Shown here piece by piece: positions 14,168 to 48,902 of a stretch of DNA of 48,902 nucleotides (the first letter of the stretch is position 1; the number at the start of each line of letters is the position of its first letter). The DNA comes from Deltaproteobacteria bacterium. Lineage in GTDB: Bacteria > Desulfobacterota > Desulfobulbia > Desulfobulbales > S012-135. Below the pieces are notes generated by a model, which ran no database searches, had not been told where the DNA came from, and saw only the letters and a program-made list of their open reading frames with translations. A program made the position numbers and the translations under genes. The stretch is taken from positions 1-48,902 of the forward strand of contig WFOD01000287.1 in NCBI GenBank assembly GCA_015488275.1, written 5' to 3'.

Positions 14168-14528
<361 letters not shown>

Positions 14529-43174: not shown

Positions 43175-43250
<76 letters not shown>

Positions 43251-43262
43251 TTTCGTCAGAAC

Positions 43263-43293
43263 AAGGAGCCGAACGGTCGGCTCCTTTTTTTTT
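43263..43293 (+). terminator. Terminator after tRNA-Val
   Basis: AAGGAGCCGA-ACGG-TCGGCTCCTT followed by a T run. Confidence 0.8.
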
Positions 43294-43338
43294 GGTACGC
43301 CAGGCATGGCGCGCAGCGCCGTGAGTGCGCACCAAATA

Positions 43339-43419
43339 AAAAAGCCCGCAAACCGTTGTGGCTTGCGGGTTTTGTGGACTTCCTTGGAAGCCCTTGGATG
43401 TAAACATGGTGCGAAGGCC
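43339..43419. repeat. Left att direct repeat, including a tRNA-3'-end-like core (minus strand GGCCTTCGCACCA)
   Basis: 43345-43412 is identical to 48835-48902 (68 bp; 74 bp with one mismatch) and includes a terminator hairpin. Confidence 0.85.
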
Positions 43420-43480
43420 ACACCCACTTTCGCATGTATCACCTTGAAATTGAATAGTTTTTATTTAGAAACCTTAAAAA

Positions 43481-43501
43481 TTGCCCCCAAAGTTGCCCCC
43501 A
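43481..43501. repeat. Integrase arm-type repeats (TTGCCCCCAAAGTTGCCCCCA)
   Basis: The same motif occurs three times at 48741-48782 upstream of int. Confidence 0.65.
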
Positions 43502-43803
43502 GATGATCGCCGCTGGGAGGCATTGGGGAGCGCAAAATACCTGTTCACCCCGCCGCGCCAGCATGGCATTTGAGGGATAGGGGGTGGCGTTTTCTGGGGC
43601 CGCAAAGGTCTAGACCGGCGGCCCACCCAATTTTTTTCCGGCGCAGGTTGGTCCCCAAGCGATGGCAAACTTGTCGAAAAAACATTAACTTTTGCTAAAA
43701 TCAGGCAAAGAATTGATTACAAACTTATTAAACTCCGGCTGGCCCCTTGGTCCCACCGATCACCGGGAAGACCATGCCGCACCGCTCACACCGCCAGCCG
43801 TCC

Positions 43804-44211
43804 TCAACGGCCGTGTATGTCGCGTTGCCGCCACCTACCGCACCCCGTTCCTTTCGCCCGCACCGTCCGTCGGTCAGGGGCCGCCTCTTGGCGTTCCCCG
43901 CACCGCTTCAGGTCCGCCGGCAGCCGCCGCCACCCCTCACGCCAGGGGCCGCCGGGCAACGGTCGGACACAACCGGCACCAACACCAGGGATGATCTCCA
44001 GAGCGTTGCAGCCATGACAGCAGGGCGGGACAGAGGCCGGCTCGTGCTGGTCTGGTACAGGTAATTTCCCTCCTTCGGGGGGCGAATCGGGCGAATTGGG
44101 CGAAAACGTTTTGATTTCAGCACGTTGCCTTGGGCGAATGCGGGGCGAATCGGGGCGAATTTCGGGCGAATCATCGAAAAGTTCGGCCAGCAATGCCATT
44201 ACCCTGCTCAT
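43804..44211 (-). CDS. Hypothetical protein overlapping iteron array 1
   Basis: ATGA overlap with the primase stop; contains CCHGC and two further Cys; part of its sequence is dictated by the repeats. Confidence 0.4.
   Translation of the reverse strand: MSRVMALLAELFDDSPEIRPDSPRIRPRQRAEIKTFSPNSPDSPPEGGKLPVPDQHEPASVPPCCHGCNALEIIPGVGAGCVRPLPGGPWREGWRRLPADLKRCGERQEAAPDRRTVRAKGTGCGRWRQRDIHGR
44080..44170 (+). repeat. Iteron-like array 1: 7x GGGCGAA
   Basis: Copies start at 44080, 44089, 44098, 44132, 44143, 44153 and 44164. Confidence 0.8.
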
Positions 44212-46646
44212 CTCTCCATCTCCCGCGTGACAGCGAAAACGATGCCTTCGTTTTCTTCCACCAGGCCCACCTCACCCAAGACTGCCAGCGCGGTATCACG
44301 CCGGGACTGGGATCGTAGATGCTTGGGCGTGACGAGTTTGAGCATGGCGCTCTTGGGGTATTGCAAGCCTGGCCGACGCAACAGCCATTCGTACAGTTGC
44401 AGCGCCCACACTCGTCCCTCGTCGTCATCCTTGCCGTCGAAGACGCGCAGCCATGAATCGAGGGAATACGTGGCTAAGGTGATACCGTTCCTCATTGCCC
44501 CTTCGTCGATTTCCCGTTGCCCGTCGAAAACGGACAACACGGCGGCAATGCGTAGTGCTTGTTCTGTAGCGCGAACCGCGAACGGTTTGATGAGTTTCAG
44601 TATCCCCTCCTCGGTTTTGGCCTGAACCTGCATCTTCTCGTAGAATCTGCACGCCAGCGCCAGCGCCTTCTCCGTGGGACGAATCACGGGAAGGCCAGAG
44701 CAGTCTTCTCCAAGCTCACGGGCCAAGAATTCACGGCACTGAGACCAAAATTCACGGATCGCTGAAAAGCTCTCAGGTTTAAATGGCCGCGCCTTGAGCG
44801 GCCCTGTTGGGGCCGGGCTAGCCAAAAGGAAGCGGGGCCAGAAGCCAACCGTTGTCAACAACGGGTCATGGATTGCCTGATGGGCGATGTCCGGCTGGAC
44901 AAGCCAATGGATCGACAATCGGCGGTCGTAAAGCTGGAGACGGCCGTCCTTGCCTCGCGCAACGGAAAGCTCGCCACCGTCCCATAGCGAGTTGAAATTA
45001 CCAGCCGTCTTCCCTCGCTGCTCCTCGCTCATGCCGTAGCCGGCCAGCATGACGGCAGCTTCACTCGTGAAAACGCCTTGTGACGGAAGCCCCTCTTTGA
45101 AGCCGCGTCGAATTCCCTCGACCGTGCCGTCTTTCAACACCCGGTAAGGTTCACGGGGGAAGACGATTGGCGAGTCGTCTTGCCGCCGGCCGTTGTTTCG
45201 CCGTTCTTGAAGGATCGCCCGATACCGGCGTCCGTCTTTCCGTTGCTGTTCCGTAATCGGCCGCAGGGCCGCTTCTTCTGCTGTACTTTTCCCTTCGCCG
45301 CTTTCAGCTACGGTCAGACAGTACAGCGACAACGGTTTGGTGCCGGCCAGCGTTTCTACGTTCGCCACGCTTTGCGTCAGGAGCGCCACCGTTGCAAGCA
45401 GGCATTGGCCCGCGATCTCCGCCGGCACCTGCCCATTGGTGACAAGCACCTTGCAAGCACCGGCAAGCGGTCCGAGGGCTTCGACTGGGTATGGGGGGCG
45501 ATCCTGGTCTGTGACGCCCCGGAAGAGAAGCCGCCGCGCCTGCTTGAGCATAACGACAACTTCATTTTCGCCCAAAATTCGCCCCCTTTCGCCCGTGTTT
45601 CGCCCGCCAGAATTCCTTGCCCTGCTTGGGTTTTCGCCCAATTCGCCCCTTTCGCCCCTACGCCGGCCAAAACCGGCCTCCTGCAACGCCTTGGCCGCCG
45701 CCTGAAAGTCGCCGCCGTGCTCCAGGTACGAATACACCGAAAAGGCGGAGTGCGGGCCGGTCGGTATGCTGGCGTTCGTGGAGAAGACGAAGAACCAGCC
45801 ATCCTTTAGCGTGGCGCTCGTTCCCTTTTCCTTTCCTGGCCGTGTCCAATGAGCGCCGCCCGGTCCATGCCTGCCGGTGGGCTTCCACCCGTGTCGTTTC
45901 AGCAAGGCCGGCAGCACGTCGCGCCATCTGGCGTTGTACTCGTCGCCAGGCCGGCCGTGAGGGGTGGCGCTCACTGGTTGTCCGGCAGCTTCCACTGGCT
46001 CCTCGGTGAAGGATTGCGCCAGGACGTGGAGTAGCCGCCGTTCTTCAGCCGTAATGACGGGGCACTTTGTCAACTCCCCAGAGATGGCGCGGTAGCCGGC
46101 CGTCGGGACAGTCAAAAAGTAGCCGCCCTCGCCCCTGGTCTCGATTAGGGTCCGCTTTCCGTCCTGGTCGCGGCCAACGGCTAGTTTCAGGTTGCCGTCC
46201 ACCGGTTTCGCGCATCTGTACACCAGATGGTAGCCACCGGACGGTGTTCCCACCTTGACGGTCAGCTTGGCCGCCAAGTCGGGGTCGATCTGCTCCAGGG
46301 CCTCCAGGAAGGGCTGGAACAGGGTAGGCTCGTCAAAATCGAGGCATTCCAGGTTGCCGGAGACCTTGCCCCCGATCACGGCAAGGCCGCAGCCGTCACG
46401 AAATAGGCGGGCTACCTCCCAGAGAGCCATCGGCTCGGACTGATATTGTCGCCATGAGCGGACCGCCGGGGCCTTCGGCTTGTCGTGATGGGTGGGCGGA
46501 AAGACGGGGAGGACCGAAAAATCAGCCTCTAGCAGCCTAGAGGCCGCCTGTTGGACCAAAGGCGCACTTCGCCTGTTCCCCCCCGGTCCGGGGGCCTGTT
46601 GCCGCAGGCATGGGGATACCTCCTCACGCCTTGCGGGCTTCGGCAA
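44208..46646 (-). CDS. Replication protein: N-terminal Prim-Pol (bifunctional primase/polymerase) domain plus C-terminal DUF3987/YfjI-like P-loop domain
   Basis: LECLDFD, TPSGGYHLVYR and IETRGEGGY Prim-Pol motifs; Walker A AESGEGKS; GFWPRFL. The start is ambiguous (see findings). Confidence 0.82.
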   Translation of the reverse strand: MPKPARREEVSPCLRQQAPGPGGNRRSAPLVQQAASRLLEADFSVLPVFPPTHHDKPKAPAVRSWRQYQSEPMALWEVARLFRDGCGLAVIGGKVSGNLECLDFDEPTLFQPFLEALEQIDPDLAAKLTVKVGTPSGGYHLVYRCAKPVDGNLKLAVGRDQDGKRTLIETRGEGGYFLTVPTAGYRAISGELTKCPVITAEERRLLHVLAQSFTEEPVEAAGQPVSATPHGRPGDEYNARWRDVLPALLKRHGWKPTGRHGPGGAHWTRPGKEKGTSATLKDGWFFVFSTNASIPTGPHSAFSVYSYLEHGGDFQAAAKALQEAGFGRRRGERGELGENPSRARNSGGRNTGERGRILGENEVVVMLKQARRLLFRGVTDQDRPPYPVEALGPLAGACKVLVTNGQVPAEIAGQCLLATVALLTQSVANVETLAGTKPLSLYCLTVAESGEGKSTAEEAALRPITEQQRKDGRRYRAILQERRNNGRRQDDSPIVFPREPYRVLKDGTVEGIRRGFKEGLPSQGVFTSEAAVMLAGYGMSEEQRGKTAGNFNSLWDGGELSVARGKDGRLQLYDRRLSIHWLVQPDIAHQAIHDPLLTTVGFWPRFLLASPAPTGPLKARPFKPESFSAIREFWSQCREFLARELGEDCSGLPVIRPTEKALALACRFYEKMQVQAKTEEGILKLIKPFAVRATEQALRIAAVLSVFDGQREIDEGAMRNGITLATYSLDSWLRVFDGKDDDEGRVWALQLYEWLLRRPGLQYPKSAMLKLVTPKHLRSQSRRDTALAVLGEVGLVEENEGIVFAVTREMER
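45567..45657 (-). repeat. Iteron-like array 2: 7x TTCGCCC (inverted), inside the replication gene linker
   Basis: Copies start at 45567, 45578, 45588, 45599, 45633, 45642 and 45651. Confidence 0.8.
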
Positions 46647-46857
46647 TGGTCTGGTCCATCCATGCCTGGATCTCGCTTTCCAGCCAGACGACAGTGCGGG
46701 GGCCGATAGTGATGGACTTCGGGAAGAGGCCGCGCTTCATGCGTTCATAGATAGTGGTGCGGGCCAGGCCAGTGATGACCATCACGTCCTTGATTCGCAG
46801 GAAGCGACCGGTAGAGGTGGGAGGATGATGTCGGAGAGAATTTGTGTTTGTGGGCAT
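46624..46857 (-). CDS. alpA: AlpA-family regulator/excisionase
   Basis: RFLRIKDVMVITGLARTTIYERMKRGLFPKSITIGPRTVVWLESEIQAWM; GAGGTG RBS. Confidence 0.93.
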   Translation of the reverse strand: MPTNTNSLRHHPPTSTGRFLRIKDVMVITGLARTTIYERMKRGLFPKSITIGPRTVVWLESEIQAWMDQTIAEARKA

Positions 46858-47451
46858 AAGTCACCTCTTGTTGGAGTTGACGGTTTTGCCCACGTGGAAG
46901 GGAACGCTCCACACCACTACCGTCAAATCTTTGTCAATTGACAAAGCAACGATGGCATCGTAGTGTGATAGTGTTGGCATTGGCCCTCCACATGGGCCAC
47001 TAGCCCCGCCCGCCCGGAAGTTGCAGCTTCCAGGGGTAAACTGGACGGGGCTTTTTTTATGCTGTATCCGCATAGATACTCTAGTATTCTGTTTTTAGCA
47101 AGGCAAAATCTGTTGCGGGAAAGCGACCGTGGCCCAGGAAAATATTACATTTTTGCAAGAATACGAAGTAGGGAAAGTTTTTCGCGCCCGGCCAACGCTT
47201 GCGCCTCTGGGACCCGCATTACCCCCACGCCTAGCAAGGACCCGCTTCGGCACGTCCGTTGCTTGCGCTTGTGGTGTCAAGCAGGTGACACACAATTGAC
47301 GCCGCCAGGCACAAAAAAACCCCGCTTGGTTACAGGCAACACGCTCAGTTCTGAGCCCGTTACCTGTCAATTGCCAAGAGGGGGCTGGTACGCCGGCCGG
47401 CAGTGAAACTGTATAGTCCCCGCCTGAAACATGAAATCTATGGGCAGGGGG

Positions 47452-48681
47452 TCAGCCGGCCGCTCTGAAGGGGACTACCTTTGGGGGCTTGCTGGCCGCC
47501 AGCTGGTCTAGGTAGTCGGCCCAGGTCTGCATCATCTTCCGTCGGTCTGCCAGATACTCGGATCGGTGATAGGCGGCCCGCACCTTGTTCCGTTCGGCAT
47601 GGGCAAGCTGGCGTTCGATCACGTCCGGCCGCCAGCCCATTTCATTCAGGATGGTGGATGCCGTGGCCCGGAAGCCGTGCGGGGTTGCCCGCTGGTGGTA
47701 ACCCATGCGGTACATGGCGTAGAGCAGGGTATTCTCGCTCATGGGCTTTTCGGGCTTGTTCTGCTGGGGGAAGACCAGCCGGCCATTGCCGGTCAAGGCA
47801 TGGATTTCCTGGAGCACTGCAACGGCCTGTCGGCTCAAGGGAACGATGTGCTCTTTTCTCATCTTCATCCGTTCGGCCGGAATCCGCCAGGTGGGGGCAT
47901 CTCCCTCAAGCTGGAATTCCTGCCATTCGGCGGCCCGTAATTCGCCGGGCCGGACAAAGGTCAGCAACAGCAAGCGCAGGGCCAGCTTGGTGAGAAGATG
48001 CCCGTCATAGGCGTCCAGCCTGGTCAAGAATTCGGGAAGATCGGCTTCTTTCAGGGCCGGCCGGTGGGTCACCTTTCGGGTCTTGAGAGCGCCTTGCAGG
48101 TCGGCCGCCGGGTTGCGGTCGCAGTAGCCGGCGGCAATGCCATAACGGAACACCGCGCCGCTACGCTGTAACAGACGGCTTGCAACGTCCAAGGCTCCAC
48201 GGGCCTCCACCGCCCGCAGCGCCTGGAGCAGTTCCTTGGGGGAGATTTCTGCAAGCGGTCGATGCCCGAGAACCGGGAACAGGTCTTTCTCCAGGGATTG
48301 CAGAACCCGCTTGCCGTGCTCTTCGGTCCAGCGTCCAACCTGCTTGTCGATCCATTCCCTGGCGACACGCTCAAAGGTTGTGCTGGCGCGCTTTTCCTCG
48401 GCCAGCTTGCGGGCCTTTCGTTCTTCGGCCGGGTCGATGCCGGCCTTGAGCAAGTCCTTGGCCTTGTCACGCTCCTTCCTTGCCTCGGCCAGGGAAACCT
48501 TGGGGAAGACGCCCAGACTGATTCGCTTCTCCTTGGGGCCGATCCGATACTTCAGCCGCCACCATTTGCTCCCGCTGGGGGCGACTTCGATGTACAGGCC
48601 GCCACCGTCGAACATCTTGTAGGGCTTTTCTCGTGGTTTCGCGGCCTTGATCTCAACGACAGTCAGCTTTCCGGTACTCAT
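47452..48681 (-). CDS. P4-like tyrosine integrase with arm-binding domain
   Basis: DGGGLY and KRISLGVFP.VSLAEAR arm domain; catalytic motifs VRPGELR, HGFR, QLAH and RAAY. Confidence 0.95.
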   Translation of the reverse strand: MSTGKLTVVEIKAAKPREKPYKMFDGGGLYIEVAPSGSKWWRLKYRIGPKEKRISLGVFPKVSLAEARKERDKAKDLLKAGIDPAEERKARKLAEEKRASTTFERVAREWIDKQVGRWTEEHGKRVLQSLEKDLFPVLGHRPLAEISPKELLQALRAVEARGALDVASRLLQRSGAVFRYGIAAGYCDRNPAADLQGALKTRKVTHRPALKEADLPEFLTRLDAYDGHLLTKLALRLLLLTFVRPGELRAAEWQEFQLEGDAPTWRIPAERMKMRKEHIVPLSRQAVAVLQEIHALTGNGRLVFPQQNKPEKPMSENTLLYAMYRMGYHQRATPHGFRATASTILNEMGWRPDVIERQLAHAERNKVRAAYHRSEYLADRRKMMQTWADYLDQLAASKPPKVVPFRAAG

Positions 48682-48828
48682 TGGGGCAGCTCCAGGGGGT
48701 AAGATTCCCGGTTATACACTGCGATGATTCCCAGGAATTGTTGCCCCCATTTTTGAATCTACTGCCCCCAAAGTTGCCCCCATTTGTCCCCGGATGTCAA
48801 GGGGTTTTTTTGGACGTTCTCGGACAAG

Positions 48829-48902
48829 AAAAAACCCGCAAACCGTTGTGGCTTGCGGGTTTTGTGGACTTCCTTGGAAGCCCTTGGATGTAAACATGGT
48901 GC
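48829..48902. repeat. Right att direct repeat (runs to the window edge; probably the 3' flank of a minus-strand tRNA ending GCACCA at 48902-48897)
   Basis: Matches the left copy at 43339-43412 (one mismatch). Confidence 0.8.

Follow-up and report, generated by a model that had tools for sequence, protein, structure and literature searches.

Two mirrored heptamer arrays in and beside rep

The DNA analyzed in this study, referred to hereafter as the window, is the whole 48,902-nt contig WFOD01000287.1 (C287) in the 2.8-Mb draft genome of a Deltaproteobacteria bacterium (assembly GCA_015488275.1). Toward its right end, the window carries a ~5.5-kb int-alpA-rep island located at a tRNA-Leu gene, in which all the genes are encoded on the minus strand. 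The rep gene of the island encodes a primase-helicase, and two arrays of the heptamer GGGCGAA were found at this locus, one within rep (array 2) and the other just downstream within the small gene orf135 (array 1). The features of the locus are summarized in Table 1, and the analysis described below suggests that the two arrays are probably the separated halves of a replication origin.

Table 1. Coordinates of the two arrays, the genes and domains around them, and the ends of the island
Feature	Position in window	Strand	Remarks
Array 1	44080..44170	+	7 x GGGCGAA(W); TTCGCCC on the gene strand; 38 bp past the rep stop; orf135 codons 14-44
Array 2	45567..45657	-	7 x GGGCGAA on the gene strand; Rep aa 330-360 (RGERGELGEN...GGRNTGERGRILGEN)
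rep primase-helicase	44208..46646	-	Longest open reading frame (ORF) 812 aa from TTG; database version 740 aa, starting at M73
Prim-Pol domain, Rep aa 37-188	46083..46538	-	PF09250, E 1.3e-12
Helicase part, DUF3987 P-loop, Rep aa ~360-737	44436..45569	-	PF13148, E 1.3e-48; between both arrays
C-terminal winged-helix domain, Rep aa ~740-812	44211..44429	-	Candidate iteron reader, from the structural model
orf135	43804..44211	-	ATG overlaps the rep stop (ATGA); array 1 encodes the N-terminal part; Cys-rich C-terminal part
alpA-family regulator	46624..46857	-	PF05930, E 3.8e-20
Tyrosine integrase with arm-binding domain	47452..48681	-	Domain match
attL direct repeat	43339..43412	+	74 nt, 99% identical to attR
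attR direct repeat	48829..48902	+	Cut off by the contig end; on contig C72 the repeat leads directly into the 3' end of tRNA-Leu(GAG)

The seven GGGCGAA copies of array 1 start on the plus strand at 44080, 44089, 44098, 44132, 44143, 44153, and 44164, and the seven of array 2 are located on the minus strand at 45567, 45578, 45588, 45599, 45633, 45642, and 45651. The start-to-start spacings of 9, 9, 34, 11, 10, 11 in array 1 and 11, 10, 11, 34, 9, 9 in array 2 are exact mirror images of each other, with 1396 nt between the inner arms. The sequence-only reading of this DNA, which had described two inverted seven-copy arrays with mirrored spacing about 1.4 kb apart, was therefore exact in every coordinate. 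The window as a whole contains 31 copies of the heptamer, compared with 14.4 ± 4.2 in 100 shuffled sequences (the largest count being 26, with none reaching 31), and 14 of the 31 fall within the two 91-bp stretches. The Poisson estimate for the occurrence of at least seven copies per 91 bp was about 2e-15, and matches to the arrays in the whole draft genome were confined to these two places.

When the two arrays were aligned in register, the heptamer bases were identical at 49 of 49 positions. The spacer bases agreed at only 14 of 42, a value close to the shuffle mean (9.8, standard deviation 2.7) and reached by 9% of the shuffles. Moreover, translation of the heptamers proceeds in two codon phases in rep (yielding GE or GR) and in two in orf135 (SP or RP). 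This preservation of the heptamers across codon phases, set against the drift of the spacers, supports the view that selection acts on the DNA of the heptamers, presumably for protein binding, as had been proposed earlier from their fixed phasing and diverged spacers. The inner gap had a GC content of 0.43 in array 1 and 0.57 in array 2, against 0.60 for the locus.

In the AlphaFold model of Rep, the segment encoded by array 2 was the sole long, low-confidence, and structure-free stretch between the two halves of the protein: the confidence score pLDDT was below 50 for aa 330-354, and neither helix nor strand was present from aa 324 to 359. This was in good agreement with the earlier assignment of array 2 to the linker between the Prim-Pol and P-loop domains. 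The best-matching stretch of the DUF3987 family was aa 496-737, and a protein of this family has been demonstrated to be an oligomeric 5'-3' helicase having a small C-terminal domain (PMC11724360). A sequence search of the PDB with Rep retrieved no chain at E ≤ 1. In addition, an in-frame ATG (Rep M366) is located at 45549-45551 on the minus strand, 15 nt beyond array 2; since the stand-alone helicase genes of relatives start near the array, a helicase-only product generated by internal initiation at M366 is conceivable.

Although only one array had been placed in the replication gene by the sequence-only reading, which was correct for array 2, array 1 was revealed to lie likewise inside a gene. 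The product of this gene, orf135, begins with an N-terminal 'LLAELFDD' helix, followed by the SP/RP stretch that the array encodes, and its C-terminal domain is rich in Cys (CCHGC...GC...PWRE.WR...RC); the arrangement of orf135 with rep suggests translational coupling of the two genes. No Pfam family was matched by orf135. Its Cys-rich part recurs after the array in the related loci L050 (46% identity) and L049 (41%), with tblastn E values of about 1e-9, and also in the database proteins P0123 and P0124. In P0123, the residues corresponding to aa 61-135 are identical except for one, and the part in the place of the array-coded N-terminal region is unrelated, while in P0124 GTPGTP-type repeats take the place of this region. 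Because the C-terminal part is conserved in L050, L049, P0123, and P0124, the last with its own GTPGTP-type repeats, orf135 is probably a real gene.

Related loci and the helicase module

To survey the arrays beyond the window, the DNA encoding sequence relatives was collected. A single-protein query of genome contigs found no relative, an alignment query of them later succeeded (33 loci), and viral contigs gave no relative with the same query; a further 57 loci came from metagenomes. The loci L045-L048, with 22-29% identity, were excluded. For each locus, the repeat word was defined as the most frequent 6-mer of the first 450 nt past the rep stop and was then counted elsewhere in the locus. 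Among the 87 loci including the window, 14 were short of downstream DNA, 7 were without a linker zone, and 18 were without a word present in at least five copies; after removal of four duplicates, 44 loci having both zones and a strong word were classified.

As in the window, a split layout, with the sense-strand word in the linker zone and the mirror array after the stop, was found in 14 of the 44 loci. In 25, the layout was contiguous, both halves being located after the stop with the sense-strand half first and none in the linker. Two loci (L019 and L023) showed both layouts, and three showed none of these. The surveyed loci are labelled as Gamma-, Beta-, and Deltaproteobacteria; among those scanned, integrase genes were present in many and alpA in some. 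Seven of the 18 loci classed as weak by the exact 6-mer rule were read by eye: L051, L055, and L073 were found to contain split arrays with degenerate words, L062 and L032 showed nothing, and L028 was without a linker zone. The linker array of L063 appeared to be decaying (GGGCGAA, GGGTGAA, GGGCGGA, GGGCAAA), and no array was evident by eye in the 185 nt past its stop; this locus may represent a defective element.

The spacing of the arrays was also retained. The linker array of L033 shows 9, 9, 34, 11, 10, 11, and the six exact copies past its stop are spaced 10, 11, 34, 9, 9; in L053 the corresponding values are 9, 9, 34, 11, 10, 10 and 11, 10, 11, 34, 9, 9. The words themselves differed between elements (GGGCTAA, TGGCGAA, GGGCGAT/C, TGCGAT, and TGCTAA), and the two arrays of an element change together. 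Thus, the four GGGCTAA elements (L016, L017, L049, and L050) contain three to five copies of GGCTAA and at most one GGCGAA in the linker zone, while the remaining 12 split or both-layout elements have no GGCTAA, except L071, in which two copies were counted and both words are mixed in both arrays. TGGCGAA was the word of L024, L025, L030, and L053. Mirrored arrays with other heptamers in homologs had been named by the sequence-only reading as a check on itself, their absence counting as refutation, and they were indeed found to recur, with words that change jointly.

Within single arrays, the copies are not always uniform. In both arrays of L059 and L073, T is the last base of the three distal copies (...GAT) and C that of the proximal ones (...GAC); taken together with L051, the distal (9-bp) and proximal (~10.5-bp) iterons differ in the last base (T vs C or G) in a mirrored manner, hinting at two possible binding modes within each half. 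The lengths of the inner gap in 74 half-arrays were 34-35 (40 half-arrays), 43-47 (27), 52-57 (5), and 38 (2); steps of about 11 could reflect helical phasing or, equally, degenerate copies missed by exact matching. A semi-conserved motif of about CAG..GGCGCGGGTTTC was observed in the inner 27-bp gap of both arrays of L078, of the linker array of L033, and of the downstream arrays of L024, L053, and L071. It occurs in coding and non-coding copies alike, is not common to the two gaps of the window, and is a possible second site.

In six loci of the split or both-layout classes (the window, L016, L017, L019, L050, and L064), the array encodes the linker between domains of a single fused protein. 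In nine others, the helicase is encoded by a separate ORF and the array is located 8-95 codons past the upstream in-frame stop; in L033, the gene upstream of this ORF encodes a CHC2 zinc-ribbon protein. At the protein level, relatives keep the motif 'GERGE.GE ... G.R.GE.G' at the junction despite unrelated N-terminal domains, and no such GERGE motif was found in more distant relatives with short linkers. In P0008, the PrimPol half is nearly identical to that of Rep (294/317 residues, aa 19-331); its helicase half is different and devoid of the GERGE motif, with the divergence beginning within a few residues of the first heptamer. The best matches in the genomes of relatives likewise cover only Rep aa ~13-341. 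At the other end, P0123 diverges from orf135 about 10 residues beyond the last heptamer. Since P0008 and P0123 diverge close to the outermost heptamers, the region 44080-45657, within about 30 nt on either side, behaves as one exchangeable unit. The arrays travel with the helicase/winged-helix half, whatever primase domain lies upstream, and this association supports the earlier prediction that they are recognized by the element's own Rep.

A candidate for the reader of the heptamers is the C-terminal region of Rep. The AlphaFold2 model of its last 100 aa (pLDDT 78.5) showed an H-E-H-H-E-E topology, and the last ~70 residues were predicted to form a winged helix. Structural alignment by VIA-align gave Z scores of 8-9 and a root-mean-square deviation of about 2 Å over 62-67 residues with many winged-helix domains; the origin-binding domain of P4 alpha was not among the 50 matches listed. 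A Foldseek search with the same model gave no match at E ≤ 0.001, only weak winged-helix matches at E 0.03 or more. The residue following a conserved GP/TP in this domain, located at Rep aa ~773-776 (window ~44319-44330), was K in all 17 of the GGGC loci and R in all five [T/C]GGCGA loci. In the 18 TGCG-type loci, it was in no case K or R, a small residue going with TGCG words; kinship among the loci was ignored in these counts. This residue is a candidate determinant of word specificity, which we regard as a lead only.

A probable split replication origin and its alternatives

The anatomy and conservation of the arrays, the joint change of their words, the way they go with the helicase module, and the prediction of a winged-helix fold are observations; from them we infer binding of the arrays by Rep, their firing as an origin, and the ways in which the halves might cooperate. 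In the interpretation that we consider probable, the arrays are Rep-binding iterons and form the two halves of the island's replication origin, of a split inverted-iteron type. The island's own Rep, a PrimPol domain fused to a DUF3987 helicase and a C-terminal winged helix, would bind both arrays, and the origin would serve the ~5.5-kb integrative island (int, alpA, rep, and orf135). In most relatives, the origin would be one imperfect palindrome directly past rep, the left half of which would consist of the sense-strand word in three copies 9 bp apart, a gap, and three or four copies ~10.5 bp apart, with the right half mirrored. In the lineage of the window, the left half is located instead at the 5' edge of the helicase module, so that the halves are separated by 1.4 kb of helicase and winged-helix coding DNA. 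Six or seven Rep subunits would assemble on each half via their winged-helix domains and load one ring helicase there, the two rings facing in opposite orientations; the halves may act alone or may be brought together by looping. A novel bipartite origin had been postulated by the sequence-only reading. The bipartite layout held, and the claim of novelty has to be toned down, the arrangement being the split form of an inverted-iteron origin that is contiguous in 25 of the 44 loci and known from the Staphylococcus aureus pathogenicity islands (SaPI) and phage-inducible chromosomal islands (PICI).

Several observations weigh against this interpretation. No AT-rich unwinding stretch was found: the centres of the contiguous origins are 3-46 bp long with a GC content near that of the locus, and the inner gaps average only 0.004-0.039 below it, with array 1 of the window (0.43 vs 0.60) as the exception. 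The halves are 1.4 kb apart, a distance without tested precedent for double-ring loading. In the likely source run, the island had a sequencing depth of 13.3-17.3 and the flank one of 16.4, giving no sign of replication, these values being per-contig means that cannot measure copy number. Neither an excision joint nor a circle joint was detected in the assembled (Logan) contigs of four hydrothermal-vent runs from two studies, and a terminal overlap indicative of a circular contig was observed in none of the 43 whole-contig loci. Furthermore, the helicase tree does not unite the split elements in a single clade and requires at least four changes among the three layouts; no order of events is therefore claimed.

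Starting from the split origin, a more far-reaching view can be put forward tentatively, to which we give appreciably less credence than to the origin itself: array 2, the helicase, the winged helix, and array 1 together might be a portable 'replication-specificity cassette' bounded by inverted half-origins. Each half-origin would be translated as the disordered linker of a different host protein (Rep or orf135), and the half-origins would keep the reader domain linked to its sites and mark the joints for exchange between islands. For initiation, such a cassette would either load single rings independently at two sites separated by 1.4 kb or form a Rep-held loop around the helicase gene.

The closest alternative, which we consider unlikely, is that only one array, most likely array 1, is the origin and that the other is an auxiliary Rep-binding locus; the latter could be a crr-like cis enhancer, a site for copy-number control or autoregulation via handcuffing, or a block to rep transcription. 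In P4, one iteron cluster (crr) is located 46 bp past the alpha gene, and the other (ori) is found across the operon at a distance of 4.7 kb. The stand-alone helicase genes carry the upstream array at their 5' end, 8-95 codons past the stop, which is an operator-like place, and the inner gap of array 1 in the window is more AT-rich than that of array 2 (0.43 vs 0.57 GC). Handcuffing by iteron-bound Rep is also established in iteron plasmids (PMC6312765). Against these points stands the finding that the arrays are exact mirrors in number, spacing, and sub-variants and map one-to-one onto the halves of the contiguous origins in 25 loci, and such exact symmetry and correspondence argue for equivalent, symmetric roles of the two arrays.

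In another alternative, the arrays would act as nucleic-acid structure, either by pairing over 1.4 kb within the rep-orf135 transcript, thereby coupling or gating orf135 translation, or by pairing in single-stranded DNA. The predicted inter-array RNA duplex was indeed stable (-118 to -120 kcal/mol vs -60 ± 5 for shuffled partners), and the start of orf135 overlaps the rep stop, 41 nt ahead of array 1 on the transcript. Strong duplex energy, however, arises from any inverted repeat, and complementarity of the arms alone leaves unexplained the seven identical words per arm, the 9-bp and ~10.5-bp spacings, and the manner in which the word tracks the winged-helix clade; pairing of this kind is accordingly quite improbable as their function. 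The arrays might also be bound by another protein, such as the orf135 product, AlpA, the integrase, or a host factor, and serve in partition, in the control of excision, or in transcription. The Cys-rich nature and adjacency of orf135 bring this to mind, but we judge it comparably improbable: P0123 retains the orf135 C-terminal domain without the array-coded part, the motif is missing from P0008 despite its PrimPol half, co-variation links the arrays to the helicase/winged-helix module, and the TTGCCCCCA repeats near the island ends are better suited as integrase arm sites. Least credible is the notion that recombination or duplication left the arrays behind without a function, or that they persist because of the repetitive peptides encoded by them. 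The arrays do lie at module boundaries where domain swaps occurred, and the degenerate linker array of L063, with none evident by eye in the 185 nt past its stop, would fit such decay; neither relics nor peptide selection, however, would be expected to yield perfect heptamers beside near-random spacers, two codon phases per gene, and the recurrence of the arrays with co-varying words across gamma-, beta-, and deltaproteobacterial loci.

Inverted-iteron origins with a self-loading helicase are already known, and what the split origin proposed here would add is a natural series of contiguous and split forms around helicase coding DNA. This series offers a test of whether half-origins must touch in order to load two ring helicases, a point described as open for the SaPI Reps (PMC9371898). 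The matched pairs of word and protein (GGGCGAA, GGGCTAA, TGGCGAA, TGCGAA, and others) may serve to clarify how the winged-helix tail reads an iteron. The locus further illustrates how peptide motifs (GERGE..., SP/RP) can arise in proteins from constraints at the DNA level, and at which points small islands swap replication modules. Finally, it provides a candidate minimal replicon of about 2.9 kb for DUF3987 primase-helicases, descriptions of such origins not having been found in the literature searched.

The host island and comparison with known systems

The att repeat of the island is at least 74 nt long, including a terminator-like hairpin (nt 1-102 of contig C72 (L110) for the attR side). 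A tRNA-Val gene is located at 43175-43250, about 90 bp left of attL, and a 28-nt stretch just left of attL (43300-43327) recurs at 96% identity on contigs C176 and C133. Repeats of the TTGCCCCCA type were observed near the two island ends at 43482-43501 and 48741-48782; they comprise an exact direct repeat of 20 nt and one additional copy beside int, and are candidate arm-type sites of the integrase. A 70-aa ORF is also among the island genes; a variant contig in run X3 joins 46662 to 47164 and omits 501 nt, the omitted part corresponding here to alpA and this ORF. The island itself, with 2-5% divergence, was present in several hydrothermal-vent runs of two studies. An Rfam scan of 43250-48902 gave no family at the gathering score, and a promoter scan gave two sites (1.1 expected), none of them at either array. 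Elsewhere, the window contains a tmRNA gene at 14168-14526 (tag ADDYAYAVAA) and four tRNA genes besides tRNA-Val.

As for the host island, the nearest counterparts are the phage-inducible chromosomal minimalist islands (PICMI), ~6-kb satellite islands of Vibrionaceae with a core of int, alpA, and a DUF3987-type primase, inserted next to fis (PMC10803314). The window island resembles them in carrying these same three genes and little else, and differs from them in being located at a tRNA-Leu gene rather than at fis. In the literature searched, which did not extend to subscription journals and bioRxiv supplements, no report joining DUF3987 and iterons was found, and the word 'iteron' is absent from the available main text on PICMI (PMC10803314) and from the available text of the AgaPH paper (PMC11724360).

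With respect to function, the SaPI origin provides the closest parallel. According to PMC9371898, SaPI Reps read iterons by a C-terminal winged-helix domain, the iterons are located just past rep in two opposed sets, and two Rep hexamers are thought to self-load; the PICIs of Gram-negative bacteria share the same origin design (PMC6092414). In common with these systems, the window island encodes its own helicase, with a C-terminal winged helix as predicted here, and has putative iterons directly past rep (38 bp in this case); as in the Gram-negative PICIs, int and alpA are also present. Unlike in them, the helicase of the window belongs to DUF3987, a relative of which unwinds 5'-3' (PMC11724360), and is not an SF3-type 3'-5' Rep. 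The opposed sets of the window are moreover 1.4 kb apart around helicase coding DNA and are both translated, and no AT-rich centre was found.

In terms of layout, the P4 ori/crr system, to which the sequence-only reading had likened the arrays, proved to be a fair analogy, having one initiator-repeat cluster just past the rep gene (crr, 46 bp past alpha) and a second kilobases away, together with a multidomain primase-helicase. P4 alpha possesses a C-terminal origin-binding domain. No sequence similarity between Rep and P4 alpha was detected (best BLASTP E 0.59). Unlike the arrays of the window, the P4 clusters are not mirror copies, both lie outside alpha, and they are 4.7 kb apart; the window arrays are separated by 1.4 kb, and one is inside rep. 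A bracketed rep gene is also a feature of P1 (incC-repA-incA) and F (ori2-repE-incC), in which two clusters of the same iteron flank rep, one serving for initiation and the other for control via pairing. The initiators of P1 and F, in contrast to that of the window, are small winged-helix Reps that recruit the host DnaB, and their clusters differ in number and role, neither of them being coding.

The coding nature of array 2 is reminiscent of the lambdoid ori, where the O iterons are located mid-gene and translated, and extra iterons add residues to the protein (PMC7466680). Array 2 similarly lies inside the initiator's own gene and is translated as a flexible segment (aa 330-360, with pLDDT below 50 for 330-354). 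Unlike in the window, the iterons of lambda form a single cluster next to an AT-rich tract, and the O protein lacks a helicase function; in the window, a second, mirrored cluster is present in the next gene, and beside array 2 no AT-rich tract was found (inner gap GC 0.57 vs 0.60 for the locus). Given its DUF3987 helicase, the lack of similarity to alpha, the absence of an AT-rich core, and its split halves, the window origin would belong to none of the SaPI/PICI, P4, and lambda families. By analogy with them, it most likely resembles a SaPI/PICI origin in its mode of action, shares the layout of P4 ori/crr, and is a coding origin in the manner of lambda.

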